Shown piece after piece: positions 73-55,983 of a stretch of DNA of 64,000 bases. Under the pieces are notes generated by a model that worked only from the letters and a program-made list of their open reading frames with translations, did not search any database and was not told the DNA's origin. Made by a program: the position numbers and the translations under genes. Each line of letters opens with the position of its first letter. Position 1 is the stretch's first letter. Source of the stretch: a virus; IMG/VR virus record IMGVR_UViG_3300012943_000029, positions 92,922 to 156,921 of that record, one strand, 5' to 3'.

Positions 73-504
73 TTAGCGTGCGCTGGCGTTCAGGCTTTTC
101 TCGACGGCTCCAAGGCCCTCATACTTGTAACCTTCACTGTGAATGAGCTCGAGCAGCGCCCTCGCCTCATCTGTGTCGCCGTCTTTCAGTAGCTGAAGGA
201 GGCGCGTCATCGTGCCCCTCTCATCATCTAGATCTACATGGTCGCGCTGTAGTATCAGCGCGAGGTAGTAGTCATTCTTAGATATGTCATGTCTCTTGAA
301 CCACTCGGCGTTGCTGTTCCAACCATCATCAGGATCAAATCCGTCTTTGGTCATTCTGTCAATGAGCTCTTTCATCTTTGGGTGATCTCCGCCCAAGATG
401 AATGCCGAGACGGCGCCAAGAGGTGCATCAAAGTCATGAGCCAGCTTCGACACGATACGTGGTGTTCGCGCATGCTCAGCTATGAACTGCTTGAATGTTG
501 TCAT
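73..504 (-). CDS. Putative internal head protein with T4-like capsid-targeting leader (family member)
   Basis: N-terminus MTTFKQFIAE closely resembles T4 IP capsid-targeting sequence MKTYQEFIAE; C-terminus GYKYEGLGAVEKSL shared with the 44-56 kb family. Confidence 0.7.
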   Translation of the reverse strand: MTTFKQFIAEHARTPRIVSKLAHDFDAPLGAVSAFILGGDHPKMKELIDRMTKDGFDPDDGWNSNAEWFKRHDISKNDYYLALILQRDHVDLDDERGTMTRLLQLLKDGDTDEARALLELIHSEGYKYEGLGAVEKSLNASAR

Positions 505-3354: not shown

Positions 3355-3750
3355 TTAGTCTTGCTTCTTGAGAACCAGCTTGACCCACTCGATCGCTGAA
3401 AGCTGTGGGTTGCAAGCATATGGATTTGCCTCGAAGTTTGCTGGACGCTGGAGCTCAGCGAGCAGCCAAGTTGAAACTTGAACTGAGACCTCAGGGGTGA
3501 ACGCCTTTACCTGCTCAATGAGCTCGGCATTCGTCGACATGCTGTATGGAGCAAGCTCGCGTGGCCAGCTGTATGGACCACCGTTTCTGAACATCTCAAT
3601 GAGAGCGGCAACGATGAAGTACTGGACGTTGTTCGTAACGCCACCATCGCGGACTACCTGTTCGAGGGTCATGGTGATGTGGACTGGGATCACGCCTTCC
3701 TTGAGGTCGACTGAACCGGCTACGACTGTCTTGATTTCGTTAAGTCTCAT
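3355..3750 (-). CDS. Late hypothetical protein, possible internal head protein (MRLNEI leader)
   Basis: ORF with RBS and a perfect TATAAATA box 34 nt upstream. Confidence 0.6.
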   Translation of the reverse strand: MRLNEIKTVVAGSVDLKEGVIPVHITMTLEQVVRDGGVTNNVQYFIVAALIEMFRNGGPYSWPRELAPYSMSTNAELIEQVKAFTPEVSVQVSTWLLAELQRPANFEANPYACNPQLSAIEWVKLVLKKQD

Positions 3751-3843: not shown

Positions 3844-4266
3844 ATGAAGCTCTCACAACTCAAGCGCCTCAACGAGGCTATCACAGGTTCAACCGTAGAA
3901 GCTGCTGATCTTAAGGACAAGAGGTTTGTCGACAAGCTAGCAAACGAGCTGCATGACAATGGCTTTCCAGATACCTTCAAGCTGGACGTCAAGCTGTCAA
4001 ACGGCCATGTGCTACCGACCACGTGGAAGCTTACGAACAAGTCGATCAACGACAGCCCAACTTGGCACCAACTAACGTTCGCCTACGAACCAGATCATGA
4101 GAGCAGCACGCGCAAGTTTGATTACCTACGCCACGCCGAGAAGGATGACAACGATCCTGAAGGTGAGACATACGATGAGCTTCAGCACGACCTCAACTTC
4201 GACATGCTCGAGGTAATGGCCGAACTCAGATCAGATATTGAGAAGGTGTATGGACACCTCACCTAA
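3844..4266 (+). CDS. Late hypothetical protein with MKLSQLKRLNE leader
   Basis: ATG at 3844 after AGGA RBS and late box; leader ends in L-N-E. Confidence 0.65.
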   Translation: MKLSQLKRLNEAITGSTVEAADLKDKRFVDKLANELHDNGFPDTFKLDVKLSNGHVLPTTWKLTNKSINDSPTWHQLTFAYEPDHESSTRKFDYLRHAEKDDNDPEGETYDELQHDLNFDMLEVMAELRSDIEKVYGHLT

Positions 4267-11700: not shown

Positions 11701-11948
11701 ATGAACGCCTGGATGGTCTTGAACGTGGAGCCTGGCAGGTACAGCGCGTCAGTATAGTTGATCCACGCGCCATCTTGGTATACCTCAACGCGATTGAGGT
11801 CTGTGTTGTAGCGGGCTGAGCCAGCGTCTGCCCCAACAGGGCGCTCTGCCGTAGTTCCATTCGGCAGATCGAGAGCCCCAGTACCACCGATGGTAATCGT
11901 ACCAGTACTTTCGGGGGTAATGGTCTCTGTGTCGTAGTTAAAATCCAT
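8739..11948 (-). CDS. Long tail-fibre-like protein (1069 aa)
   Basis: Thr/Gly/Ala-rich; repeated NGDGVSGNPT and LANDLAA(L/V)EALA modules; GTTA(E/Q)RP motifs. Confidence 0.8.
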   Translation of the reverse strand: MDFNYDTETITPESTGTITIGGTGALDLPNGTTAERPVGADAGSARYNTDLNRVEVYQDGAWINYTDALYLPGSTFKTIQAFIDIIGSRGTFSGGTFTDNGDGTLAVTGGTGQIHATDNTLSHLYFFDFAAVPSLALTNNALNYIFVDYNGGSPTVIATTTPNFAVDHVIIGQVYRAGTVLTLNNYTRLKLDNSLAGIINRFESVQGFERESGAILSATGTRNFAISAGAFWEGIDRYTLTAKDTSGSDTFTYWYRTAPTTWASAASQTQIDNTQYNDPSSGLVALSNKAYGSHWVYLSTDGQIHVVYGITNSTNLDTTTASQPPTTPPNPLLTASLIGRIIIKKSDADFTEVQSAFNVVFTGGSVTSHNELGGLQGGTTDEYYHTTATQNTLIVNLAALGNGVVVKTAAGTFVNRTLTAGAGISISNGDGVSGNPTISATGGGGTVTSITLTQPAAGLTITGSGTPITSTGTPTFALANDLAALEALASTGIAVRSASDTWVQRSIVSANSKITVANGDGVSGNPTLTIVEANFTGIPESAVTNLVTDLAGKQPLDATLTSLAAFNTNGLLTQTAADTFTGRTLTGPAAGITVTNGNGVAGNPTLALANDLAAVEALAANGMAVRTATDTWTVRTITAGTAISISNGDGIAGNPTITNTGVTSAVAGSNISVSGATGAVTLNVVPAGANTNVQWNNNGVLGGSNNFNFVTGANPYVSVTGTSATNQMRVGPAYTAPGLAAQYLAGPATMYIETGNTDQDAQLVYFNSGVPGTSGYISYAYDGSTPYLRLTDADDDAPYITFNTIGTGTYANPLYVSVFGARGTYAARTAGAASGFSWYVGANTDAGALITANAPIMELDTQFLRIPSGTTAQRPTAVVGMERYNSSIGSPEDYVGGGAWAQRVGVITKSVIPTTLTNAAGNVLSYSVPGGTLGTTNLLHIRTCGTFARTTGSARSVTITVSYGGTTLWSDTTANQAGNSDGAWDLDLILASNNSANAQILNGTVRIGGTGNVTVGTAGDLNTASINAFAIVNGTAAVNSGAAQTLTIAVSFSGTGTTWVTNFHIIEKM

Positions 11949-11977
11949 TGCTTACCCTTGTGAGGCAGCGACTTCGG

Positions 11978-14428
11978 TTAGTTCGTAACCTCGGTCGTGC
12001 GAACCGTTGCCACCCAGCGGATGGTCTTAGCAGCTTCACCAGTGACAGTGATGCGAAGATCACCGGTCGTGGCGTTAGCCGTAACGGCGGCATCCCAAGA
12101 AGCATTGGTCTCACCGACGACAGTCTTCGACACAGCGCCGACGAGTGTGTTCGATGCGGCAGTACCATCCTTACGGATAACACCGACGAAGCGGTAACCT
12201 GAACCACCGCCAGTTGCATCAGTGCGGCGGGCTGCGATGAGAATGTCAAACGTAACGACTGAGTTGTTTGAGAACACGAGGCGCTGAGTTGCAGCAGCAC
12301 CGTCAAGGAACAGAGCCGCTGGTGTGGCGTTGTTCGTGATGGCGCGAAGAACGTAGGTTCCTGCCTGTGCATCACCGTCAGTTGCAAACTTGCCGTTGGC
12401 GAATGCCTTGCTACCGAAGATCGATGCGCTTGAACCCTCACCGAACGCCTGAGCGTTGGTGCCAGTTGCTGAAGGTGCTGATGGCGTAACAGCGTTCTCA
12501 GCGTAGAGCTCAAGACCTGCATTTGGCGGCAGATCTGCAGCAACGATGGCGCGGAAGGTTGGCTCATCGCTACCACCACTTGCTGGACCGGCGAACACCG
12601 TGTTCGCGGCCTGTGAAGCGAGTGTGAGTGTGAGAGTGCCGGTCGTTGTGACTGGTGAGCCGCTGATCGTGTAGATCGGAGCGGCTGAAGCATCTGCTAG
12701 GGCGACGCTCGTAACACCCGTGTTGGCGATCGTGATCGTGCCTGCGCCGTTGGTGACGGAGATACCCGCACCTGCGGTGAGAGCCGCAACCGATGGGGCA
12801 CCGCCGGTAGAACCGATGAGGAGCTGACCATTCGTTGGAGCGGCCGACGAAACAACCTGCTTGCTTGCGTTCGAGTAGACGAAGGTGTTCGCCGTGTTCG
12901 AAGCAACTGCGAGGGTGGTCGTAACTTCAACAGAACCCGGAGCGATGAGCGCTGAAGGCAGGCTAAGCGTGACCGAGCCAGTTGATGCCGAGGCGGTGAT
13001 CTGGTTGGTGGTACCAGCGATTGAGGTGACACCATCGTTGGTGATGGTGACGGTGCCAGTTGAAGCATCAACGCTGATGCCATCACCAGCAACTGCTGAC
13101 GTTACGCCAGTGTTGTTGATGGTGATCGTGCCTGCGCCGTTCGTGATACCGATTGCAGTGCCTGCAGTAATGGTGCCAAGCGTGTAGCCGGTGCCGTTAC
13201 CAATCAAAAGCTGACCGTTAGTTGGGGTAGCCGAAAGTGCCGTACCACCGTTGGCGGTAGAAACTGGCGATGAGAGCGCGAACTCTGTACCAGTCAGCGT
13301 CAGACCGTTACCTGCCGTGTAGGTGTTCGTACCAGCAAACTGCGTGAAGCTTACTGGATCAGTGTCAATGTCTGAAACGTCATTGAACTGTACCCATGCG
13401 GTGTCCGCAAACAACGTACCCTGCTCGACGAATACGGCAGCGCCGTTGATTTCGTTGATTGGCGTAGTTGCATCCATGTCTGTGGCGCGAACCCATGCAC
13501 CAGCGTGGGCGACATAGATACCGTTTTCTTCAGGGGCAGCCTGATCCTTGACGAGGACGCGCTGACCGTCGGTCACAGTTACACCGTCAACAGTCAGGAG
13601 ACCGCCGGTGGTGAGATCAATGTCAGCAGTAGTAGCGGCAGTTGCGGTCTGCTTCCATGACAGGCCCGTGGCAATTGCGTCGACGTATGACTTGTTGACA
13701 ACGTCGCTGTCAGCCACTGGGTCTGGAACGCCGGTTACTGTTGCGCCACCGGTGAATACGAGATCACCAGACATCGTGTCGCCGGTGACATTCACGTATG
13801 TGCTGTCGACGAGAGGGGTAATGTCGCCTGCAACAACTGCTGAAGTGGCGGTTACGCGACCCTTTGCATCAGTCGTAATCTTGACGAATGCGCCAGATAC
13901 TGGGGTGCCAGCATCGACGAGGTTGATTGTTGGGTTGCCAGATACACCATCACCGTTCGTGACTGAGATATTACCGGCTGTGCCAGCGATTGAGCGTTCG
14001 ACAAATGTGTCGACGCCTGACTGAACAACAATGCCAGTTCCACCGCCAGCGGCGAGGGTAGCAACAGCCTGGAGACCAGTTGAAATATTGACAGTGAGAG
14101 TACCAGTGCTAGTGACTGGACCTCCACCAACGGTAACACCAGTTGAAGACGTGCCGATGTCTACACTTGTTACAGAACCAGAAGACGTGGAGAGAGTTTC
14201 CCAGGTAGTGCCGTTGTAGTACTCGAGAAGAGTAGTTTCGGCGTTCCAACGGAACATACCGCCAACGCCAGTTGGGCGTTCAGCTGTCGTACCCTGAAGC
14301 AGTGTAAGAGCGCCGGTTCCGAGGAGCGATAGAACTCCAGCAGTTCCACCAAGCGGTGGCAGCTGCGAACAATCCAGGGTTTGAATGGTATCAATCAACC
14401 CGGTGTCAAAATTAAAGTTCATGCTCAA
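11978..14428 (-). CDS. Tail-fibre-like protein (816 aa)
   Basis: GTTAERP, NGDGVSGNPT, RVLVKDQ..ENGIYV domain, NGQLLIG repeats; late box at 14457-14463. Confidence 0.8.
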   Translation of the reverse strand: MSMNFNFDTGLIDTIQTLDCSQLPPLGGTAGVLSLLGTGALTLLQGTTAERPTGVGGMFRWNAETTLLEYYNGTTWETLSTSSGSVTSVDIGTSSTGVTVGGGPVTSTGTLTVNISTGLQAVATLAAGGGTGIVVQSGVDTFVERSIAGTAGNISVTNGDGVSGNPTINLVDAGTPVSGAFVKITTDAKGRVTATSAVVAGDITPLVDSTYVNVTGDTMSGDLVFTGGATVTGVPDPVADSDVVNKSYVDAIATGLSWKQTATAATTADIDLTTGGLLTVDGVTVTDGQRVLVKDQAAPEENGIYVAHAGAWVRATDMDATTPINEINGAAVFVEQGTLFADTAWVQFNDVSDIDTDPVSFTQFAGTNTYTAGNGLTLTGTEFALSSPVSTANGGTALSATPTNGQLLIGNGTGYTLGTITAGTAIGITNGAGTITINNTGVTSAVAGDGISVDASTGTVTITNDGVTSIAGTTNQITASASTGSVTLSLPSALIAPGSVEVTTTLAVASNTANTFVYSNASKQVVSSAAPTNGQLLIGSTGGAPSVAALTAGAGISVTNGAGTITIANTGVTSVALADASAAPIYTISGSPVTTTGTLTLTLASQAANTVFAGPASGGSDEPTFRAIVAADLPPNAGLELYAENAVTPSAPSATGTNAQAFGEGSSASIFGSKAFANGKFATDGDAQAGTYVLRAITNNATPAALFLDGAAATQRLVFSNNSVVTFDILIAARRTDATGGGSGYRFVGVIRKDGTAASNTLVGAVSKTVVGETNASWDAAVTANATTGDLRITVTGEAAKTIRWVATVRTTEVTN

Positions 14429-44320: not shown

Positions 44321-44746
44321 TCAACCTGCTGCGGACATTTCCTTCAGTCGATTGATGCCGATGGCGACCGACTTCTTGGCGGATGCGATGTGGTCGGCCT
44401 GAGCGAGGTCATTCTTTGAGAGCCAATCAAGGAAGAGAACAAGGTCTACGCCGTGGAGCCGCATCTTGTCAACATCATTCCATGGGTGTCCATCACCGGC
44501 GCTTCCGATCTGAACGAGGAACTGCTTCACCCACTTCAGGGTGAACTTGAAGATGTTGTTGGTGATCTCAGGGTTTGTCCTTGCGAGCTCTTTGAACTCG
44601 GCCGCGCCGCCGCGAAGGCGGTCAGCGAGCTCATCGAAGCGCCACAGCGCATGCTCATCAACGCTAGCTAGAAAATTTGTCCAGCGTGCCAGGTTGGTGA
44701 CCTCGGTGCTCGATAGCTCTTCATTAATGAGTTCAGCGATCTTCAC
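44321..44746 (-). CDS. Putative internal head protein (family member, KFTLxW domain)
   Basis: MKIAELINE leader; IFKFTLKWVK...FLDWL...AKKSV. Confidence 0.7.
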   Translation of the reverse strand: MKIAELINEELSSTEVTNLARWTNFLASVDEHALWRFDELADRLRGGAAEFKELARTNPEITNNIFKFTLKWVKQFLVQIGSAGDGHPWNDVDKMRLHGVDLVLFLDWLSKNDLAQADHIASAKKSVAIGINRLKEMSAAG

Positions 44747-44747
44747 T

Positions 44748-45254
44748 TCAATCCTTCAAGTGCGGGTGCTTCTCGAGGTGCGCGTTAAGATCTGCAACTG
44801 CTCGCGCATGATCTGCTGTAGCATTTGCCAGCGCCTCTCGCGCATTGCTGACGCGACCTTGTAGGTGCTGCTTGTGATCGGCTGGTGTGTAGGTGCTCTT
44901 CTGAATTACTTTCAGCTCAGCCTTTGTTGGAGCAAGATTTTCTGGCAGCTCATCAACAATGACGCTGTCGAGGATATCGCTGAACGCATTCTTCTGCGCA
45001 GGTGTATCGGCTATGTCCTTGATCGCCAGCATGATGACGCGCATAACATCCTGCTTGGTCAGCCCGTGCTCTACAGCTAAAGAGAGCTCGTTGCGAAGAT
45101 CTGTCTGAGCATCTTCCATCTCGTCAAACAACGTATCACCATCACCAGCGCCAGTGTCATGGTCAACTGTTGCTGCTATGCAGTTCTCGATGGCATCGAG
45201 GATCTTGTCCTCGCTGAAGCCCTTCTCATTCTCTAGAAGCTCTTTGATATTCAT
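44748..45254 (-). CDS. Putative internal head protein (family member)
   Basis: MNIKELLE leader; L.KQDVMR.I...IK motif; TAAATA at 45286-45291. Confidence 0.65.
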   Translation of the reverse strand: MNIKELLENEKGFSEDKILDAIENCIAATVDHDTGAGDGDTLFDEMEDAQTDLRNELSLAVEHGLTKQDVMRVIMLAIKDIADTPAQKNAFSDILDSVIVDELPENLAPTKAELKVIQKSTYTPADHKQHLQGRVSNAREALANATADHARAVADLNAHLEKHPHLKD

Positions 45255-45326
45255 TAACCTGCGCCCTAATCATTGCTGAACCTACTATTTACGCCGCCAG
45301 GTTTGAGGCGTGTTAGAATGCCGGTC

Positions 45327-45566
45327 ATGGATCAAGAAAAACCGATAACGATGGTCGTGAACAAGCGGGCCCTAGAGAGTGTCGTCATCAATGAAGACCT
45401 GATGAAACACGCTGTTCGCCTGCTCACCCAGCAGCTTGACGACCTCGTCGGTGACTGCCTCGACGAGAGCGGCAACCTGAAGGCGCCATCGAAGAAAGTA
45501 ATCATGAAGTCGAAGCGTTGCCTACCATCATGGTGCAAGAATACCTTTGAGGAAAAGACAAAATGA
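45327..45566 (+). CDS. Hypothetical protein, possibly leaderless
   Basis: TAGAAT ends 7 nt before ATG. Confidence 0.55.
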   Translation: MDQEKPITMVVNKRALESVVINEDLMKHAVRLLTQQLDDLVGDCLDESGNLKAPSKKVIMKSKRCLPSWCKNTFEEKTK

Positions 45567-45838
45567 TCATCGACCTTTACCCGACAATCAAGAAAGCGAC
45601 CATCGAGATAGCCTACGATAACGGTGCCGTTCACCGTGGTCGGACAGAGCAGGACGTTCTCAACGCAGTTGAACCTGTGCTGCGGTGCCGAACCATCACC
45701 GAGCTTGAGGCAGCCGAGGTTGAGCTGGCCGGCTTGACGTTTGAAGACCTCGAGACCCTCTGCTGCGGCGAGCAGGGGCTGGTTGAGGCAACACCGGCCA
45801 CCGAGCTGCTACTTACTGACATTTTCGAGAACATCTAA
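45563..45838 (+). CDS. Hypothetical protein
   Basis: ATGA-coupled ORF. Confidence 0.55.
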   Translation: MIIDLYPTIKKATIEIAYDNGAVHRGRTEQDVLNAVEPVLRCRTITELEAAEVELAGLTFEDLETLCCGEQGLVEATPATELLLTDIFENI

Positions 45839-45850
45839 GCTCATCAGGTC

Positions 45851-45857
45851 ATAAATA
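45851..45857 (+). promoter_or_regulatory. Late promoter (ATAAATA)
   Basis: Upstream of clpS and the two large family genes. Confidence 0.7.
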
Positions 45858-45880
45858 CCCCATCACCAGTGGGGTATGGC

Positions 45881-46261
45881 ATGACGACACAATTTCCTCT
45901 CCTCGAAGAGATCGTTGACATCGAAAAGAAGTCGAAGGTCAGCGATGCCCCTGTTGAGAAGCCACCAGGCTGGAACGTCGTCATCCTCAATGATGACACA
46001 ACCCCTGCCGAGGTAGTCGTCGAGGCCATCGTCGACAGCACCGATCTGACACCGCACCAGGCGATCGAGCGCATGATGACGGCGCATAGCGGCGGTTGGG
46101 CGGTCATCAAGTCATATCACTCAGCCGACGTTGCTGAGCAGGTGGCGCACAACATCCAGGTGCACGCCGAGAACAACACCAAGTACGATCACTACAAAGA
46201 GCACCTCGGCCACAAGGGCCCGTGGCCGCTGACGACCGACATTCAGGAAATTAGCAAGTGA
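45881..46261 (+). CDS. clpS: ClpS N-degron adaptor
   Basis: P..WNVVILNDDTTP.E.VV...A...M..AH..G.AV. Confidence 0.88.
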   Translation: MTTQFPLLEEIVDIEKKSKVSDAPVEKPPGWNVVILNDDTTPAEVVVEAIVDSTDLTPHQAIERMMTAHSGGWAVIKSYHSADVAEQVAHNIQVHAENNTKYDHYKEHLGHKGPWPLTTDIQEISK

Positions 46262-47028
46262 AATTTAGCGAGCTCCTTGAAGCGCGTGAGGTTGTTGCTC
46301 CTGACAGCGGTCAGGCAAAGTTCGCTGAGCTGAAGAAGGCGCTTCTCGCTGGCCTACCCGACAGCGTAAAGACTAAGGGCGTTGTTAAAAGCTTTGACCT
46401 TGGTGGCCTGACATTCAAATTCTCATGGGGTAATGAGGACGGCCACCCGTACTTCTGCTACCAGTCGAATGACCCTCGTGGCTTCGCCATCATCATCAAG
46501 TTTCACAGGGATGGAAAGAAGCTGACGCCAATGACGGCCGACGTAAGTTGGAGCGGTCAGGTGAAGCGCCCTGGTTATGACGACAGCTTTGTTGACCGCA
46601 ACTTTGAACGCACAATCAATCTCCACCCTGCCGCCGACAAGCACGCTGACGGTATCAAGCTGACGGCAAAGGACCTTGCTGGCGACGTATCAACGGATGA
46701 TGAGGGTATTTTGGCCGCCATTGAGAGCGAGACAGACAACAACGCAGAGTACAGTGTCGTGCTCGGTGACATAGTGAAGAAGCTGCGCAAGCTGAAGGAT
46801 CTAAACAAAGAGCGCCTTGAAGGGCCGCTCATGCGCGCCACGCTGCAGACGCTGAAGACAATGCTGACCGACAACGACGGCTACACTCGCGGTGAGGGTG
46901 CCTTCATTATTAAGTGGATCAACACGCTGCGCCATCTTGGCTACAACTATCCAGCGCTGGAGGGCGTTGAGAGAAAGTTGCACGCTGAGGCTGTTAAGCA
47001 CCTCAAGCATGATGAGACGATCAAGTGA
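46258..47028 (+). CDS. Putative internal head protein, two-domain, paralog of 55309-55983
   Basis: MKFSELLE leader; FH..GKKL.PM.A and LHPA..KH..G..LT; C-terminal W...L..LGY.YP.L..VE.KL. Confidence 0.7.
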   Translation: MKFSELLEAREVVAPDSGQAKFAELKKALLAGLPDSVKTKGVVKSFDLGGLTFKFSWGNEDGHPYFCYQSNDPRGFAIIIKFHRDGKKLTPMTADVSWSGQVKRPGYDDSFVDRNFERTINLHPAADKHADGIKLTAKDLAGDVSTDDEGILAAIESETDNNAEYSVVLGDIVKKLRKLKDLNKERLEGPLMRATLQTLKTMLTDNDGYTRGEGAFIIKWINTLRHLGYNYPALEGVERKLHAEAVKHLKHDETIK

Positions 47029-48968
47029 AAGTTCATGACCTACTTGAGAACGTGGCGCTTGGTGATATCGACGATGAGCTCGTCGACTACATGTGGCGGC
47101 GCGGTGATCACCTCAACAATGTTTTCTATGAGCTGCGTCGGCACAAGCTGAACCGCCGTGAGGTGCTCGTCTTCCTGCGCGATGTAATCAAGCGCTTCAC
47201 ATCACCAACAAAGCGCTTCAATCTCCGCCTCTATGCGATGGTAGTTGCCGCGCACCATGAGCTGGGCTCCAGCGGTCCAACTGAGGAAGACCTCAACACC
47301 TTCAAGCAGCAGCTTCTACCTAAGGTGGATGAGGCGGTGAAGACACCGAACTGGAAGGTCAGGGTCGATCACGTAGTCGACAATGGCAATCATGCCCACA
47401 CCACAGTGCTTGAGCTGCTCTACGCCATCAATGCGTGGCGCAAGCGCCCAGACTTCAACAAGGAATGGGCCACGAAGCAGCTCATGAAGTACACCCTCAA
47501 CTGGTTGAAGTCGATGCACGAGGTGGAGCCACGACTTAGCCAGTCGATTGGGTTCCCAGACAAGTGGGCCACAGCATCGCTCAACAAGCTGCTCGGCAAG
47601 CTGACGCAGCTTGGTGTCCCAGCAACCCAGGTCGATGGCATTCGCAAGAGCTTCAACTCGCTGGGCAAGCTGAAGTCAACCAAGATCAACGAGATCATTG
47701 GCACCGCCACGGCCGACGCGGCCATCGAGAGGGACCTGAACGCTGAGCTTGGTCACTTCGTCTACAATGGGGGTGCACACCCGCCAACTAGCGAGATCAT
47801 CGAGATCATCAACAGGAACCAGCTGCCAAAATCATTCGTCATGCGCTGGCTGCTGAAGGCAGTGCAGCACTACGCTGGCGCCAACAGCACGGTTCGCGGT
47901 AGGCTACGAAACCTCGCGTACACCATTGTCTACCACACCAATGTTGGACCAACTAGAGATGAGTTCGAGACGATCGCCAAGAGCCTGTCCGCGGTAGGTG
48001 AGAGCGCTGGCGATGGGGCAATCAGCCTAGAGAAGCTCCTCAACGCCGAGCTTGGGCACATCCTCCACTCTCAGAAGGGGAAGGCATCTGACGCGCTCAT
48101 CGACATCATCTCTCAGAGCGGAATGGACCGCCAGGCCGTCATGCGCTGGTTCCTTGGCCATGTCAAGAGCCAGGGTGGTCGCTTCAACCTTGTTGACGAG
48201 CGCCTCTTCGGTCTTGCCGGCGATCTTAGAAACCTGACCCGCGTCGGTCCTAACAAAGAAGAGCTCAACGCTATTGAGAAGAGCCTGCTGAAGAGGGGCG
48301 TCAGCGAGGCGAATGAAGAGCAGTACACCGCGTCAGACCTAGAGGACGAGCTTGACAGCTACCTCTTTGACGACAAGGACACCTACCTCAGCACCCACAT
48401 AAAGTACAGCCAGCTCAGCCGTGAAGAGGTGATGCACGCCCTCCTCAACTCGGTTAAGAAGGTGCATCAGCTCGGTGGTCGCAATGAGTTCAGGTACGTC
48501 AGCGGCCGCCTCAGTGGCCTGTGCTCGTTCCTAGCCCGCGAGCTGAAGGACAAGGGACCGACGGCGGCTGAGATCAGCGCCATCAAAAGAAGCCTTGATA
48601 ACGTCAACAAGTTCGTCAATGAGGAGAATGTGAATTGGGAAGGCCACCTTAGCCTTCAGTTGAAGATCCCACACAAGTCGTCAAACGATTTCCAGCGCAC
48701 CGCTTACATGGTTCATGTGGCAGAAGCAGATCACCCAGAGCTAGACCTCGTCAACAAGTTCAAGGACGAGCTCATGAAGTTTACGCTCAGCTGGCACAGG
48801 TACATCGCCAGCAATGAGCACCTCATCGACATAGCCCCTAATGCCCTGCCAGCACACTACTACCGCGAATGGCTGAACTTCCTCGATCAGCGCGGCTGGC
48901 CAGAGGTGAAGCACCTCAAGGCATCATTCGCTGACCTCGCCAGGCAGTTCACACCGAAAGAAGACTGA
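47025..48968 (+). CDS. Six-domain putative internal-head polyprotein (647 aa)
   Basis: MKVHDLLE leader; four GP(T/N)..E...I.KSL repeats and two MK(Y/F)TL.W domains separated by [VI]-x-E linkers. Confidence 0.75.
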   Translation: MKVHDLLENVALGDIDDELVDYMWRRGDHLNNVFYELRRHKLNRREVLVFLRDVIKRFTSPTKRFNLRLYAMVVAAHHELGSSGPTEEDLNTFKQQLLPKVDEAVKTPNWKVRVDHVVDNGNHAHTTVLELLYAINAWRKRPDFNKEWATKQLMKYTLNWLKSMHEVEPRLSQSIGFPDKWATASLNKLLGKLTQLGVPATQVDGIRKSFNSLGKLKSTKINEIIGTATADAAIERDLNAELGHFVYNGGAHPPTSEIIEIINRNQLPKSFVMRWLLKAVQHYAGANSTVRGRLRNLAYTIVYHTNVGPTRDEFETIAKSLSAVGESAGDGAISLEKLLNAELGHILHSQKGKASDALIDIISQSGMDRQAVMRWFLGHVKSQGGRFNLVDERLFGLAGDLRNLTRVGPNKEELNAIEKSLLKRGVSEANEEQYTASDLEDELDSYLFDDKDTYLSTHIKYSQLSREEVMHALLNSVKKVHQLGGRNEFRYVSGRLSGLCSFLARELKDKGPTAAEISAIKRSLDNVNKFVNEENVNWEGHLSLQLKIPHKSSNDFQRTAYMVHVAEADHPELDLVNKFKDELMKFTLSWHRYIASNEHLIDIAPNALPAHYYREWLNFLDQRGWPEVKHLKASFADLARQFTPKED

Positions 48969-49030
48969 TAGGTCACCGTAGATTGCGCATGTGATAGAAT
49001 AGCTCAGGTCCCACAACCTGAGAACCGTCC

Positions 49031-50691
49031 ATGAACCCATCTCTTGCCTACCTCGCCAGTGCCTTCGAGCGCATGGAACAGGTAGATGTACTCGCTGCTC
49101 CAGGCTTCCGCTTCATGAAGGCGCTGCGCACCAAGCTGCTCAGCAAGGTTGGCTGCACCTTATCTGAGCAGGCCATCGATGAGATCATCGCCAACATGAC
49201 GATCGAGCTTGGTAACCCTGGTAGCGATGGCGATGATGACGAGTTCATCGATCGCGTGTCCACGTCAATGACCAACCTCATTGTGAAGCTCCACGATGGC
49301 TACAAGGCCGTTGGCTTCATTGATCCCGACAAGGCGCTCATCACGCTGGCCAGGCAGCTCTCAATCAAGGTGGGCTAGCATGAAGCCGATCCATATTCGC
49401 CGGCTGCGCAGCGTTATCACCGCCCTGAGGGAAGCGCCCAACCCGCTCGCCTTCGACATGGGCCAGTACGTCTATGATGGTGATGATGGCTTTGACTGTG
49501 GCACGCCAGCCTGCGCTCTAGGCCACTACGCCGCGCGCACAGACCTACAAAAGACCTTCAAGATCAGGGCGAACGCGCAGCACCAGGTTGCCGACATCAT
49601 GGCTGATGAGCAAACCATTCAAGCACCATCAGAAGAGCCGGCGGTTCAAGAGCACTTCGGCATGACCTCTGAGGAGGTTGAAGATATTTTCGGAGCTGAG
49701 GGCTGCGGTGGTGCCAAGACCACGAAGGCCGCCATAAGGTACATCGAGAGGTTCATCGCCAAGAGGGTGTCTGATGCCCGCGCGATCGTCAACGAGTTCG
49801 ACACATGAAGAAGTTCCTTGCCATCGCCATGCTCCTGACCGGCTGCGCCGATCCGAACCACGTTGCGCCAAAGCCACCGACCAAGGAAGAGCACCTTGCT
49901 GCCAAGATCTACTACCTCAAGGACAAGGTTGGACTGTGTTACGCCGCCATTGACAGTCTGTCCTCGAACAGCTACGTGATTACCTCCATCACCGAGGTGG
50001 ACTGCGAGAAGGTCGGGCTATGAACCTCGACGACTACAGCTTCACGCCAACCGCCAAGCTCTACGATCGCTGGACAAATGATCGCGAGGCCCTCATCAAG
50101 GACATCAGCGAGAAGAGCGGCATCACCAAGGAGCAGGCGACGGCGTTCATCTGCGCCCTCATTCAACCAGAAGGTGGCAGCGCATGAACCTACGAGACGC
50201 CAAGCGGCTGGCCGGCTACAACAAGACCAAGCTGAAGCGCTTCCTCGGTCGCGACCATGATTGGTATGACTTCGATCGGATCGGCGACATCGACATTCAC
50301 CAGAACCGCGTTGAGTACACCCTGTTGCGGGATGAGGGGCACGCTACCGCGCTCGCCACCGTCTCCCTGTACCTCGTGACAATCGGTAAGCGGCTGCAGG
50401 TCTGCGCCACGATGGATGACATGGACCACCCAGCGTTCGGAAGATAGCATGACCGCGCAGTCCACCTGGATCCCTCATGACCCGCCCATGAAGGTTGGCG
50501 ATCAAGCCAGGATCCTCTGCGACTGGCACCCAAACAACGGACAGGTTGGCACGATCACAGCCATCCTCGATCACACTCAGTCGAGGTGGTGCCGCACCGA
50601 CCGCTGGAGGTCTGACTGGTACGTGCTGCACATCGATGGCGCCGACCCTGAGCGGCTTGGCTTCCTTGAGGATGAGCTGCAGCCATGCTGA
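49031..50691 (+). other. Plus-strand cluster of small genes behind a GTGATAGAAT promoter (about 48991-49000), including lipoprotein 49805-50023
   Basis: Coupled ORFs 49031-49378, 49380-49808, 49805-50023 (LLTGC lipobox), 50184-50447, 50448-50691. Confidence 0.6.
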
Positions 50692-51077
50692 CCCGTCAGG
50701 AGTTCATCGACAACGCCATTGCTAGAATAGAGATGGCCGCAGGCCTTCGACCAGATGATTGCGTCTTCATGAGCGATGGCTCCCTGCTCGACACCTACGT
50801 CAGGGCAAATGGGTACGCCAATGAAATGTTCTACGAGCACCTACCCACCCTTCGCTACGCTGGTCCAACACCGACGCTGGCCGACCCGTTCCCGCTGATC
50901 AATGAAGTGAAGCCAGCCCTGCTGAAGTTCACCCTCAGCTGGCTGCGCGCAACCGTCGCCCAGCCGCGCGAGGCAAGGTTGGAACCTAAGATCGGCATCA
51001 TCGAATGGCTGGACGCGCTTGCCTTCACAGGCTGGCCCGAGCTGCCGACGATCCGCGCAACCGCCATCACCGCCTAA
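50685..51077 (+). CDS. KFTLxW-domain family member lacking the leader
   Basis: LLKFTLSWLR...EWLDAL...GWPEL..IR. Confidence 0.7.
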   Translation: MLTRQEFIDNAIARIEMAAGLRPDDCVFMSDGSLLDTYVRANGYANEMFYEHLPTLRYAGPTPTLADPFPLINEVKPALLKFTLSWLRATVAQPREARLEPKIGIIEWLDALAFTGWPELPTIRATAITA

Positions 51078-51783
51078 AGGAACCACACATGCAGCTCTTC
51101 GTCGCCGTTCACCTGACAGCCGACAACCACGTTACCCTCCTCGCTGAGGGCTCACGAGAGGACTGCACGCAGCACCTCCAGCACGTCGGCCCTAGGTGGG
51201 ACTTCCAGCAGCTGCACGTCATGTTGAAGTCAGAGGCAGCGAAGCTTCCAGGCTACCATGACCCAGTGAGAGCGGAGTAAAGCATGGGCACCCTGAAGAC
51301 CGTCACGTGCGATGACTTCAACACCCTGGTGCTGGCAGTCCAGCCCTTCAAGGACTGGATCCTCATCGGCAAGGCACCATCACCGAACGACCCGCCCCCG
51401 TACCGCGTGTCCTTCCGCAGCCCTGATAACCAGGACGACCTCTACCTCAGCGACGTGGCGGAGAACCCAGCCCTGCTGGCCGCCGTGAGGGAGGACAAGG
51501 TTGAGCAACCAGCCGAGCCTGACTTCGCCGCCGAGGGAGCCGCCATCGAGGAGCACCCCGTCCCATCAGCTGGTATCCGCCGGTGCTGACCCTCCTGCTC
51601 CATAAGACCGACGACGCGCTGATCATCCACGCCGATGGTCAACCCCTCCTCAGCCTCGAGTACAAGCAGTACGGCTGGCAGGCCGACGATGTGGCGTTCA
51701 AGTTCGCCACCGCCATAGCCAAGCGGTACGGGGTAGAGCTCGTCCTCAAGGACAGCCAGTACCAGGTGCCCTTCGGATAACCT

Positions 51784-52062
51784 GTGAACCTCGAAGCGCA
51801 CCTGACAACGTACCTGCATACCAGCGCGGTGTTCTCCCCCACCCAGCACATTCGCCGGGCAATACAGGACGCTCACTACGACCATGACACCCTTATTCGC
51901 TGGCTGCTAGAGCAGATCAGGGATAGGTACGACCAAGGTGAAACTATCCGCAACAGGCTTGCCAAGCTGGCAGGCGCCCTTCACCGCGAGCTACCTGGCA
52001 CCGGCCCAACCAAGGAAGAGCTGACAGCAATACTGAAGTGCCTCCGCTCACAGCACGCCTAA
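51784..52062 (+). CDS. GPT-type domain family member lacking a clear leader
   Basis: LIRWLL.QI...RL..LA..L...GPTKEEL.AI.K.L matches repeats in the 647-aa protein. Confidence 0.7.
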   Translation: MNLEAHLTTYLHTSAVFSPTQHIRRAIQDAHYDHDTLIRWLLEQIRDRYDQGETIRNRLAKLAGALHRELPGTGPTKEELTAILKCLRSQHA

Positions 52063-52070
52063 ATAGGTGC

Positions 52071-52427
52071 ATGAAACTAGCCGACCTTCATGAAAGCACT
52101 ACCTCAAGATGGGAACCTGTCGTCAGGGAACTTACCGATCCTCGGCACCCTGTTGGGCTGAACCTAGACCAGCTTATCTACGCTGTTCGCCAGTGGCGTA
52201 AAGAAAAAGACTACGATGCAACCAAAGCCAAGCCGATGGTTCATGGGTTTGTTCTGCGCTGGCTGAGGTCGCTACTTGAAAGATTTGAGAACACGCAGAT
52301 ACATTACCATCTTGCCCACACCCTTGAATACCTGAAGGGTTGGTTGAATGAGCTCAACCTTGATGAAGCTGAAGTGAACCTGATGGTGCGCTACATAGAC
52401 AAGCTGCTCGCCTACAGAGAATACTAA
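52071..52427 (+). CDS. Putative internal head protein (family member)
   Basis: MKLADLHE leader; LIYAVRQWRK.KDY resembles domain 2 of the polyprotein (LLYAINAWRKRPDF); TAAATA at 52060-52065. Confidence 0.7.
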   Translation: MKLADLHESTTSRWEPVVRELTDPRHPVGLNLDQLIYAVRQWRKEKDYDATKAKPMVHGFVLRWLRSLLERFENTQIHYHLAHTLEYLKGWLNELNLDEAEVNLMVRYIDKLLAYREY

Positions 52428-52439
52428 AAGGATCAGCAG

Positions 52440-53270
52440 ATGAAGGTTCACCAGCTCCTAGAAACACATGCTAACATCCTGAGTTGGCTGGACCAACCGG
52501 TCAGGCGTAACCTAGGCATCTTCGGCTTCGCTGACCATGCAAAGCGTATCTATGATGGTGATATGGGTAGCGAGATAGCCAGTAACCTGACCATCCCTGA
52601 GGTGAGGACCGCCCTCATCAAGTTCACCGTTGCTTGGATGAAACAGTTCATTCAGCAGGCAGATGACGCCAAGAGGGGCAGTGACGCTCAGGCTATAGCA
52701 GATCCGGTCTACGCCACGATTAACAACGACAAGGTCGGTAAAATGATGATCGCCTTCCAGTGGCGAGAGAATAGAAAGAACATGCTCAAGCTCATTGCTT
52801 GGTTGCGTGATCACGGTGTAGATGATCCTGCATTTGACAGGGTAGCAGCCTTCACCAAGAAGTACTCAGTGCTTGAGGCTGCCAGTGCAGATCTACTAGC
52901 ACAGGTAGAGAAGGTGGTGGATCACGTCGTAGAGAACCCAGAGCATCGCGTCCTTGGCAGCAGTGGTCTTAATGTCTTCCCATGGCACGCCTATGGTGGG
53001 ATACCGAACCCTTCTGATCATGCACTCAAGAGCATCCTGATTGCGAACAAAGATCAACTCGCAGCCAACAGGTCAAAGCTTGAAGCACCAATCATGCGCT
53101 TCACTCTAGCCTGGCTGAAACACTACCTGACCCATGCTCCGATTATCCAGTACGGTACTGGCACCATCCGTCGATGGATAGAATTCCTACGCTCTAATGA
53201 TTTGGACTTCAGTGGGTTGCAGCATGTAGAGAAGAGCCTGCCACCAGAAGAGCCGCAAGAAGAAGAGTAG
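52440..53270 (+). CDS. Two-domain putative internal-head polyprotein
   Basis: MKVHQLLE leader; LIKFTVAWMK and IMRFTLAWLK domains separated by V-L-E; ends L.HVEKSL. Confidence 0.72.
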   Translation: MKVHQLLETHANILSWLDQPVRRNLGIFGFADHAKRIYDGDMGSEIASNLTIPEVRTALIKFTVAWMKQFIQQADDAKRGSDAQAIADPVYATINNDKVGKMMIAFQWRENRKNMLKLIAWLRDHGVDDPAFDRVAAFTKKYSVLEAASADLLAQVEKVVDHVVENPEHRVLGSSGLNVFPWHAYGGIPNPSDHALKSILIANKDQLAANRSKLEAPIMRFTLAWLKHYLTHAPIIQYGTGTIRRWIEFLRSNDLDFSGLQHVEKSLPPEEPQEEE

Positions 53271-53309
53271 CAGCCTTCTGACAGGACCAAAGTAAGACCC
53301 CAAGAAGAC

Positions 53310-53929
53310 CCCTATGGCGGGTGCAGGCCAGGGTAGCCCTCCGGAGGCCCTATAAGGCCTTTTTCCTTTCCCTGCAGCACCCCGGTGCATACCGGGCAGC
53401 ACCAGAGCGCCTGCATACACCCATACACTACCCGGCCAGCTCGGGAGGCACCCACCCTGCGCTTATTCTACTAGATGGAAGAACTTTGCGCAGCAGGCGC
53501 ACCTCTCCCTCGAAACGGTTGCACAGTTCCTTACACGCACTACCCATCGGTCGTCTCTCACGCTTCTCCCAGCGACGGCGCGCCTCAGCCCTTGGTGTAG
53601 TGAGCACGCACAGCTCCACCTCCCCTCTCTCGAGGAGGTAGCGCAGCAGCTCTCTGTTGATGGTGCACCCCTCATAGATGATCAGGTCAACCTCGATGGT
53701 TGACAGGCGCCTGATGAGGGTCCTAGTCGGTCTGTGATCGCCTTGAATAGGTAGCACACGCAGGTTGTTGATGGTGTAGGTGCCGCCTTGCTTCCTCAGG
53801 TTCTTGAAGAGGTTGCATATCAGCGTGGTCTTGCCGGCACCTGGATAGCCGGTGATTAGGTACACCTTAGCCATCGAGTATTTACCCTATGGCGGGTGGA
53901 GGGCAGGTGTGGGGTCAGAAGGCCCTATA
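53310..53929 (+). repeat. Bipartite direct repeat flanking the kinase gene
   Basis: CCCTATGGCGGGTG at 53310 and 53885, each followed 35 nt from its start by AGGCCCTATA (53345, 53920). Confidence 0.75.
53428..53874 (-). CDS. Small P-loop kinase
   Basis: YLITGYPGAGKTT, IIYEG, R...R lid; TAAATA 4 nt before ATG. Confidence 0.75.
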   Translation of the reverse strand: MAKVYLITGYPGAGKTTLICNLFKNLRKQGGTYTINNLRVLPIQGDHRPTRTLIRRLSTIEVDLIIYEGCTINRELLRYLLERGEVELCVLTTPRAEARRRWEKRERRPMGSACKELCNRFEGEVRLLRKVLPSSRISAGWVPPELAG

Positions 53930-53945
53930 GGGGCCGTTCACTTTC

Positions 53946-54044
53946 TCAGCGAGGGAGTGTGCAGTCTGATATTGCAGAGATGCTGAGAAGAATGATCGTG
54001 AAGATCACGTTAGTGGCCAGCAGGGTTGTGAGAAGAAAATCCAT
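53946..54044 (-). CDS. 32-aa hydrophobic peptide (MDFLLTTLLATNVIFTIILLSISAISDCTLPR)
   Basis: AGGAG RBS and TAAATA at 54067-54072; below the ORF-track cutoff. Confidence 0.55.
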   Translation of the reverse strand: MDFLLTTLLATNVIFTIILLSISAISDCTLPR

Positions 54045-54144
54045 ATGTGCTCCTATTGTCTAGGAGTATTTACCAGGCACCTGGAGGATACCGGGAATAG
54101 CCGTCACCCGTCATCCACGTTCTTGAATGCTTCTTGAAATATGT

Positions 54145-54525
54145 TCAGCGAGCTGTGATGGACCTGCGGATTACGCTTAGCTCTTCCCACTCTTGAGGGA
54201 GGGTGTCCAACCATTCTTCAAGGTAGAAGGAACCGATGGGTTCGCCAGTGTGGAACCGTCTCAGCCACTGAAGGCTGAAGCGCAGCAGGTAGTCCTTCAC
54301 CCCATCAGTCTCATCGATAGCCTGAAGGGTCTGAACCCATGGGCGCAGGTTGTGGGCAGTGGTGTGGTAGCCACGGTTGGTCAGGTTGTTCTCATGCTCA
54401 CGACAGTAGCTGATCACCCTTGACCAGGTATGGTGCAGCGCCTCAAGCTGAGTGGCACCACGTGGCCATTTCGAGGGGATGGTGTAGATGCGGGGGTCCA
54501 GCGCAGGTTGTGTTCTTGAAACCAT
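54145..54525 (-). CDS. KFTLxW-domain family member lacking the leader
   Basis: LLRFSLQWLR...EEWLDTL..EW.EL..IRRSI; TATAAT 7 nt before ATG. Confidence 0.7.
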   Translation of the reverse strand: MVSRTQPALDPRIYTIPSKWPRGATQLEALHHTWSRVISYCREHENNLTNRGYHTTAHNLRPWVQTLQAIDETDGVKDYLLRFSLQWLRRFHTGEPIGSFYLEEWLDTLPQEWEELSVIRRSITAR

Positions 54526-55245
54526 TTGGGCTATTATACACTGCCCCTAATCTTCCCAGCGAAAGAGGAAGGTAACGCAGATGCGCTGGTACCCCTCATC
54601 AATCAGGGCGGTCCTCCACCCTCTGACGATCAGCACCTTGGTGTCAGGCTTCAACCTGTGCTTCCATCCCCAAGCGAATACCTTTCGAGGGAAAGACCGG
54701 TGCCCTATAGCGCGCCACAGCCACCTCATTCCCCAGGTTCTCCTATAGGGCCGCGAGCTTTCTCCTGCTCTGCTATCAGCGTATTGCATATCTCTACACA
54801 CTCGCAGCATATGAATACGCACGGCCCAGCTACCAGGGTCTTAACTTCAGCATCAGATTTGCCACAGAAGGAACAGTAGAGTGTAGCCATAGTGAGTTAC
54901 CTTTCGAGGGAGAGCATCAGCGGATGTTCATCATGGGTGGTGGGGGTCTAGAGGGCGCGGTCTCGGGGTTCGGCACGCTTAAGGACTGCACCGCCCCCAC
55001 CCCTTTCGAGGGAGAGGGCGAGGTGAGCGATGCCAAGATGGCGTCCACAGTTGGGGAGGGAGGGGACTTCGCCTCGTTTAGCAAGAGGTTGAAAAGTGCG
55101 ACATTCACCCGTCTTATGTAGTTGCCAACAAGCTGTTCATCAGCCCTCCGGTGTGCACCCTTCCTTAACGAAGCGATATGTTCCTCGCTGAACGCGCACT
55201 TTTGAGGCTTTTCCATGGGTCAGCGCCGGGTGGTGTATACACTTC

Positions 55246-55285
55246 TATTTACCCTTCGACCTCTGGCAGGTCGCTGCCCTAAATA
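55246..55285. promoter_or_regulatory. Back-to-back late promoters
   Basis: TAAATA on minus strand (55246-55251) and plus strand (55280-55285). Confidence 0.65.
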
Positions 55286-55308
55286 GGTGGTACCCTGGAG
55301 ATTGTCTA

Positions 55309-55983
55309 ATGAAGGTCAAGCAGCTGCTCGAAGCCGTATCCCTCAGCCCTGAGTTCAAGGCTGACCTGAAGAACCTCAAGCTAACAGGTCAACTGCCCCC
55401 TGAGCGGCTCTTGATCGGTGGTCTGGTGTTCCAGCGTCGCACCCCTCTAACCAAGGACAACTACTCGGCCAACGGCGGGGTCGGCTATGAGTACAACTGC
55501 CTCACCGATGATGAGGTCTACCTGACCATCTACTTCCATCAGACACCAGGCGGTAAGCTCATCCCTATGTCGGCCAATTCTGGTATCTGGCACAGCTCTG
55601 AGGAGTACTCGGTCGACCTGCACCCAGCCGGTACCAAGCACTCAGCTGGCTACCATCTCACCGATGCGAACCTGAAGGGTGACATGACTGAGGACAGGGC
55701 TGTTGAGAAGTTGCTGAAGCAGCTTGAGCACGATGCGGTCATCTCTGATACGTTCAGCATCATGAGGGTACGGCACCTGTTGAAGGCGGCCGGCTATGAC
55801 CCACGGTTGGTGCGGCCCATCATTCACTGGCTGCTCAGGTTGGTGAAGAAGCTCCATACAGAGGAGTATGCAACGATGAGCATGTCAAGGGTAGATGACA
55901 TCGTGCAGACGGCAAAGGAGCTGGGGTACCCGAAGGCGGAGCTGGCTACCATTGAGAAGGCACTTGCCGCCGTGGGGAAGTGA
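55309..55983 (+). CDS. Putative internal head protein, paralog of 46258-47028
   Basis: MKVKQLLE leader; FH..GGKLIPMSA, LHPAGTKHSAG..LT; C-terminal IHWLL...LGYP..EL..IEK.L. Confidence 0.72.
   Translation: MKVKQLLEAVSLSPEFKADLKNLKLTGQLPPERLLIGGLVFQRRTPLTKDNYSANGGVGYEYNCLTDDEVYLTIYFHQTPGGKLIPMSANSGIWHSSEEYSVDLHPAGTKHSAGYHLTDANLKGDMTEDRAVEKLLKQLEHDAVISDTFSIMRVRHLLKAAGYDPRLVRPIIHWLLRLVKKLHTEEYATMSMSRVDDIVQTAKELGYPKAELATIEKALAAVGK

Follow-up and report, generated by a model that had tools for sequence, protein, structure and literature searches.

A lineage-specific family of helical-module proteins with a candidate capsid-targeting tag in an uncultured jumbo phage related to T4

Several genes in one small island of a phage contig from soil begin with nearly the same eight residues, ending in φ-x-E (φ, hydrophobic residue), which raises the question of whether this short peptide is an address for the phage head or a start that related genes inherited. 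The island lies at positions 44,321 to 55,983 of the window, the whole stretch of 64,000 nucleotides that was analysed, which covers bases 92,922-156,921 of the 156,921-bp virus contig IMGVR_UViG_3300012943_000029; coordinates marked "genome" refer to the whole contig, and all others to the window. Capsid targeting followed by protease trimming is the best explanation of the peptide that the sequences offer, and one that we hold to be narrowly probable. The island itself is best explained as a lineage-specific expansion of one small, predicted all-helical module with two sub-types, A and B.

All ten open reading frames (ORFs) to which a sequence-only reading had ascribed such leaders were found; its term "basic-hydrophobic" is wrong in its first half, the leader holding a single Lys. 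Seven island leaders fall within the description of some 10-20 residues with (L/I)-x-E: MKIAELINE, MNIKELLE, MKFSELLE, MKVHDLLE, MKLADLHE, MKVHQLLE and MKVKQLLE. A strict tag, the 8-mer M[KN][LIVF]xxL[LHI]E, was distinguished from a loose pattern, M-x(2-9)-φ-x-E. The strict tag stands at the N-terminus of 7 of the 233 called genes; judged by how often the same 7-residue pattern occurs within proteins, about 0.04 would be expected, and no internal Met position matches the tag. Six of these genes belong to the island (MKIAELINE, a 9-residue variant, is outside the count), and the seventh (MKLTDLHE, genome 5675-6160) belongs to the head module, more than 130 kb away. As to whether such leaders are equally common genome-wide, the strict 8-mer is specific, whereas the loose pattern, with matches in 46 of 233 genes, is not. 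Between the tags the Leu and Glu codons differ synonymously, and the constraint therefore appears to act on the peptide and not on the DNA. Three leaders start with GTG (44746, 46258 and 47025); the starts at 46258 and 47025 overlap the preceding stop codon as GTGA, and that at 44746 abuts it.

The contig holds the partners that such an address would need. By sequence comparison it is part of a jumbo phage of the XacN1/RsoM2USA clade, related to T4: the nearest cultured capsid proteins are those of the jumbo phages RsoM2USA (64%) and XacN1 (55%), and many uncultured relatives, their genomes 340-370 kb long, are recorded in IMG/VR. The nearest relative, G001, is complete at 358 kb with terminal repeats and has a 96% identical capsid protein. 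The contig has a G+C content of 54.7% and is about 44% complete (CheckV); the stretch is present in one sequencing run, of soil metagenome DNA and probably the source sample, with no RNA run listed. Its T4-type head module includes a gp21-family prohead protease (Table 1), and the capsid protein has a propeptide of about 43 residues whose final site reads L-Q-E↓T-A-A (arrow, cut position). This φ-x-E↓T/A site is conserved in about 40 relatives, with variable adjoining residues, and from the conserved φ-x-E↓T we infer that the protease cuts after Glu. All small proteins between protease and scaffold start with at least one φ-x-E motif, and the G001 ortholog of the tagged one begins MKIKELVE, so that four of eight tag residues have changed and the pattern is kept. 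G001, which is without the A/B family, has MKφxxLφE or MxxFKxFLxE starts on 11-13 scattered genes that belong to other families, and a TAAATA box heads the units of eleven of these. The tag therefore appears to be independent of the A/B modules, since it occurs on the unrelated head-module gene, on its G001 ortholog and on G001 genes outside the family. The authors of the RsoM2USA study count ORF89, which begins MKTFKQFLSE, as one of the virion proteins that mass spectrometry helped to assign (PMC8504454); MKLHEISE and MSFKTFLE are the starts of the genes beside it. Taken together, the protease, the capsid site, the tag on the head-module gene, the G001 tags, ORF89 and the leader of gene 73-504 make a modular N-terminal address the most economical reading.

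Expression signals were compared next to these genes. TAAATA occurs 48 times genome-wide with no overall over-representation, and 26 of the 48 copies fall in the sense window from -60 to -5 of a gene start, against 1.9 expected (14-fold), with the extended consensus (A)TAAATA(C/T). Copies lie upstream of the protease operon, the baseplate genes, the fibre genes, every tagged unit and also the DNA polymerase gene; by analogy with the T4 late-promoter consensus, these units would be late. That the leader genes lie in units with such a box upstream was borne out, with boxes at -29 to -39 before 45254, 45881, 55309, 3750 and 3844 and at -11 before 52071; the gene starting at 504 is co-directional with a 606-amino-acid (aa) gene whose own box is at -70.

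The modules were defined by iterated hidden Markov models (HMMs) on the six-frame translation (genes are named here by an end coordinate). Module A, with the pattern ..LMKFTLxWLK....W-L..L..G.P.L..I.., has 8 significant copies, in 46258, 47025 (two), 50685, 52071, 52440 (two) and 54145(-), and a weak one in 44321. Module B, ..VMRWLL..VK....RL..L......GPT..EL..I.KSL, has seven copies, in 47025 (four), 51784, 44748 and 55309, which brings the island to at least 16 copies across 10 genes. Since the A and B profiles can be aligned colinearly (hhalign probability 62%, E 7.5e-5), the two modules are probably one fold. The helical domain of roughly 100 aa that had been proposed is therefore real, as two related types and not one. 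It is missing from three of the ten genes first listed (504, 3750 and 3844), and present in three that were not listed (50685, 51784 and 54145(-)). Some members are related beyond single modules: 46258 and 55309 are full-length paralogs (BLASTP E 6e-10, 32% identity), the 46258 protein having a strand-rich N-terminal region ahead of its A module, and 44321-44746 matches the first module of 52440-53270 (BLASTP E 5e-4). AlphaFold modelled the 118-aa member as a six-helix bundle (predicted local distance difference test, pLDDT, 76.6); the model of the 256-aa protein reached a pLDDT of 46.

Table 1. Features of the island, the remainder of the window and the head module (window positions unless marked genome)
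Feature	Position	Strand	Support or remark
141-aa gene, leader MKIAELINE (GTG), weak A module (FKFTLKWVKQF)	44321..44746	-	A-HMM full E 0.0013
168-aa gene, leader MNIKELLE, one B module	44748..45254	-	B-HMM E 9e-23; first of two-gene unit
ClpS-like adaptor, 126 aa, tag-like N-terminus MTTQFPLLE	45881..46261	+	Pfam PF02617, E 1.6e-14; outside A/B family
256-aa gene, leader MKFSELLE (GTG), one A module	46258..47028	+	A-HMM E 5e-29
647-aa gene, leader MKVHDLLE (GTG), leader-B-A-B-B-B-A	47025..48968	+	A/B HMMs
130-aa gene, one A module, N-terminus MLTRQEFIDN	50685..51077	+	A-HMM E 6e-15
92-aa stand-alone B module, no leader	51784..52062	+	B-HMM E 6e-36
118-aa gene, leader MKLADLHE, one A module	52071..52427	+	A-HMM E 5e-33
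276-aa gene, leader MKVHQLLE, two A modules	52440..53270	+	A-HMM
126-aa gene, one A module, no leader	54145..54525	-	A-HMM E 3e-15
224-aa gene, leader MKVKQLLE, N-terminal region as in 46258, C-terminal B module	55309..55983	+	B-HMM E 4e-16
143-aa gene, T4-like leader MTTFKQFIAE, no A/B module	73..504	-	ATG overlaps stop of 606-aa gene
131-aa gene, short leader MRLNE, no A/B module	3355..3750	-	TAAATA at -39
140-aa gene, leader MKLSQLKRLNE, no A/B module	3844..4266	+	TAAATA at -34
TAAATA box	~45286-45291	-	-37 before 45254; heads two-gene minus-strand unit
TAAATA box	45852..45857	+	29 nt before ClpS-like gene; heads plus-strand operon 45881-53270
TAAATA box	52060..52065	+	5 nt ahead of ATG of 52071
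TAAATA box	55280..55285	+	29 nt before 55309
Terminator-like hairpin with T run	53343..53362	+	likely closes plus-strand operon starting 45881
T4-type head module	genome 3,037-13,493		capsid protein, scaffold-like protein, small charged proteins, protease, portal
Major capsid protein, Gp23-type	head module		PF07068, E 2e-93
Prohead protease, gp21-family	genome 8125-8739		PF03420 Peptidase_S77, E 9e-26
Portal, Gp20-type	head module		PF07230
Head-module gene, leader MKLTDLHE	genome 5675-6160		highly charged, acidic tail, between protease and scaffold; no A/B module

HMMER searches over 1.84 billion representative proteins returned 10 matches: this contig accounts for six, and short Logan or JGI contigs account for the other four (P0007-P0010). 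Three of the four outside members start MRVNELLE, MMKALELLE and (V)LIKELLE, and P0009, the ortholog of 50685, has the T4-like start MIPTKEQLIE; in these homologs the leader ending in φ-x-E is retained and the sequence diverges immediately after the Glu. Queried with the 647-aa protein, a word index of 5.8 billion proteins returned nothing but the protein itself, and none of the 647-aa, 256-aa, 131-aa and 143-aa proteins had a tblastn match in 50,697 phage records. The domain had been called unrecognised, and so it stayed: no member has a family match in Pfam, PHROGs or NCBIfam, and the domain has no relative in PDB. The module B profile matched only designed helical repeats among PDB sequences, and the module-A model, compared with PDB and BFVD by Foldseek and by a wide VIA-align search, matched nothing beyond generic helical bundles (E ≥ 0.24 and Z ≤ 8.5, values within the noise of helical models). 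The Foldseek check that had been proposed for an AlphaFold model of the domain accordingly gave module A no informative structural neighbour, and ESM Atlas gave no usable match.

Among related genomes, the module profile had no match in RsoM2USA or in nine of ten related IMG/VR records, a positive control on the phage's own contig having worked, and a search of viral contigs for a locus related to that of P0007 found nothing. The tenth record, G002, has modules in a TAAATA-headed operon whose genes start MKLFDIFE, MNLSEIF, MKLFEIH, MKLEEL, MSLIQQLLE and MLVSELLYE; a 328-aa protein of G002 (C1:183000-199000, local 11728-12714) combines a B module with an SLT transglycosylase (PF01464, E 6e-14). 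Next to this fusion is a 623-aa protein that starts MKLFDIFE and contains a P-loop and a phage zinc-binding domain (PF24623). At the island position G001 keeps the small flanking genes at 45-80% identity, and the region between them is shorter, with no A/B module and no ClpS-like gene. Judged by these comparisons, the A/B family is almost private to this phage lineage, and the island is accessory within it.

If the tag is a capsid address, the following course can be proposed. Late in infection, transcription from the TAAATA units would make the island proteins, whose tag (M-K-φ-x-x-L-φ-E, 8-10 residues, on seven genes and perhaps an eighth) would dock them on the prohead scaffolding core. The Peptidase_S77 protease would clip off the tag behind the Glu of L-x-E, just as is presumed for the capsid L-x-E↓T, and the mature modules, remaining in the head with the packaged DNA, would pass into the cell along with it. 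We infer each of these steps, docking, cleavage, packaging and ejection, from sequence. The 647-aa member would probably also be cut at V/I-x-E in its five linkers, giving six pieces of about 10-12 kDa. This protein has 11 non-leader [LIVMF]-x-E sites, and each linker holds one V/I-x-E (VDE103, INE223, VGE326, VSE428 and VNE533). Linkers make up 15% of the chain, and random placement would yield such a pattern with P ~6e-4, a value that counts for less because the linkers were delimited post hoc by the edges of the HMM matches and could be rich in Glu. Wherever a B module precedes another module it ends ..KSL(4-9 residues)V-x-E, and the corresponding position of the B-A linker in P0007 reads VKE. 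As cut sites between modules, these motifs are suggestive only.

The sequence-only reading had proposed a set of virion-delivered proteins. Its premise gained from the S77 protease, the capsid φ-x-E↓T site and the tag on a head-module gene; the set as such did not stand whole, two or three members being tagless. That is one of several points that weigh against capsid targeting: 51784 and 54145 are untagged, and the T4-like start of 50685, MLTRQEFIDN, is degenerate and lacks the Glu, so the A/B module evidently also works without a tag. The main tag, the 8-mer MKφxxLφE, is shorter than that of T4 and differs from it in sequence, and the family proteins are near-neutral or acidic (isoelectric points 4.7-8.0), unlike the highly basic internal proteins of T4 (PMC8442874), among them IPI-III. 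The phage is known solely from soil metagenome assemblies. The virion-detected chitinase and lipase of XacN1, considered as packaged tag carriers, were rejected because they have no such tag. The start of the 647-aa gene is ambiguous, one public annotation beginning at Val10; we favour the longer form because the homolog P0007 bears the tag. RsoM2USA has dozens of paralogs starting MKLNEI or MRLSEI; either a great many proteins are packaged there, as in SPN3US (PMC5694885), or such starts are simply common in its multigene families. Lastly, seven tagged island genes belong to one superfamily, so part of their N-terminal similarity could be inherited and not selected.

Such paralogy is also the footing of the alternative that survives best, in which the proteins are cytoplasmic late products, never packaged, whose N-terminus is an inherited first helix or an initiation-friendly start with Lys as second codon, the L-x-E being incidental. 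The family members without leaders, the RsoM2USA multigene arrays with similarly stereotyped N-termini and the commonness of the loose φ-x-E pattern all speak for it, as does the AlphaFold model of the 118-aa member, in which residues 3-9 are helical. Inheritance does not account as readily for a tag shared by non-homologous proteins, namely the head-core gene and the 11-13 genes of G001, where the family is absent, nor for divergence right after the Glu while distant homologs keep the tag and its Leu and Glu codons vary synonymously. We regard this alternative as unlikely, with a modest chance of being right.

A second alternative keeps the import by the tag and changes the purpose: the proteins would be accessory scaffold or filler, like an "inner body", that shapes or fills a very large capsid and is cut like T4 gp22, gp67 and gp68, and would not be effectors. 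The resemblance to those T4 proteins lies in multiple φ-x-E sites at regular intervals and in a tagged gene within the head module; the 647-aa protein, with its repetitive helical modules and regular V/I-x-E in each linker, fits this alternative, as do the same tag on a core-module gene and the variable head paralog families of giant phages (PMC5694885). Unlike gp22, gp67 and gp68, however, the island genes are not part of the head module, and G001, despite its 96% identical capsid protein, has no member of the family, so that the family cannot be needed for head assembly and is dispensable in relatives. The predicted pieces of about 10 kDa, moreover, are folded domains and not short peptides able to leave the shell, and we consider this alternative quite improbable.

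Next to the family, the island has a ClpS-like gene, first in a late-type operon and translationally coupled to the family genes through GTGA stop/start overlap; ClpS homologs were matched in only 3 of 50,697 phage records. A 54-aa gene at 54726-54890 (-) consists of a ClpX-type C4 zinc finger alone (PF06689, E 1.7e-14) and is kept in G001 at 67% identity. That the family modulates host proteolysis together with these two genes, as the coupling of the ClpS-like gene to 46258 and 47025 and the nearby ClpX-finger gene might suggest, is very improbable, the A/B modules having no similarity to any Clp partner and the linkage not being conserved, since G001 keeps the ClpX-finger gene with neither the family nor a ClpS-like gene.

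Other features of the contig and its relatives were observed in passing. TAAATA boxes lie 4-5 nt ahead of the start codons of 52071(+) and 53874(-) (52060-52071 and 53874-53886), and if they are promoters, the mRNAs would be leaderless or nearly so. Two copies of a 66-nt element (53310-53375 and 53885-53950), 73% identical and containing the hairpin GGCCCTATA(A/G)GG(C/G)CC, flank the P-loop NTPase gene 53428-53874 (-), whose TAAATA nearly adjoins its ATG, and the motif CCTTTCGAGGGAGAG occurs at 53.5-55.0 kb in three direct and two inverted copies; these repeats may mark a small cassette or serve as regulatory sites. An Rfam scan of 43-57 kb gave no match. A 123-aa paralog of the prohead protease lies at genome 17505-17876 (BLASTP E 3e-9 to genome 8125-8739). 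RsoM2USA (150000-199999) has two arrays of paralogs of about 190 aa (ORFs 274-284 and 301-319), nearly all starting MKLxEI or MRLxEI, the same short form as in window genes 3355-3750 (MRLNEI) and 3844-4266. Three tagged RsoM2USA paralogs were considered as Alt-like ADP-ribosyltransferases and dropped, Pfam giving nothing.

The strategy of capsid targeting and trimming is known from T-even phages and from the head paralog families of giant phages. In T4 the targeting sequence MKTYQEFIAE is cut once by the head protease (PMC8442874), a gp21-type enzyme that takes it off after its Glu (PMC8442874, PMC5694885), and the T-even internal proteins have been characterised as highly diverse, with only the tag in common (PMC3012670, PMC8442874). 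The island resembles T4 IPI, IPII, IPIII and Alt in its short N-terminal φ-x-E tag on otherwise unrelated, non-essential, fast-evolving proteins, and the phage resembles T4 in its gp21-family prohead protease and candidate late expression signals; gene 73-504 (MTTFKQFIAE) and RsoM2USA ORF89 nearly reproduce the T4 tag itself. Unlike in T4, the mature parts are unrelated in sequence to the internal proteins, and the module family of two types is tandemly expanded, including a six-module protein. In phiKZ and SPN3US some head paralogs have identical N-termini that hold protease motifs, the remainder having diverged (PMC5694885). The present family shares with families A and B of those phages, and with the PF12699 inner-head proteins, a variable number of paralogs; it has no homology to PF12699 and its relatives. 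The protease motifs of those giant phages are of the form A/S/G-x-E and their propeptides mostly exceed 100 residues, whereas this clade is T4-like in motif and tag length. What is new here is the A/B module family, its growth in tandem up to a member with six modules, and the occurrence of a T4-like tag in the XacN1/RsoM2USA-like clade as well; we found no paper on the family, the expansion or the clade tag, the searches not having been aimed at tags in the clade.

A more far-reaching form of the proposal, which we put forward tentatively and hold to be rather doubtful, is that the tag serves throughout the XacN1/RsoM2USA-like jumbo-phage clade as a common address for injected proteins, on some 10-40 genes per genome, and that in this phage it is also borne by a polyprotein which the head protease dices at V-x-E linkers into six folded modules, the capsid delivering at least 16 small helical modules of a previously unseen fold family into the host. 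The injected-protein class of T4 includes anti-restriction and host-takeover factors. By analogy, a counter-defence or host-takeover role for the island proteins is only a possibility.

If the tag is not an address, the island would be an orphan paralog family in one uncultured phage lineage. If capsid targeting is correct, the A/B module would be a new, fast-expanding cargo family, and the six-module protein a rare phage polyprotein matured inside the head. The tag would then provide a simple sequence rule by which to list what these little-studied giant phages inject before their genes are expressed, and RsoM2USA and XacN1, as cultured relatives, would allow the rule to be tested.

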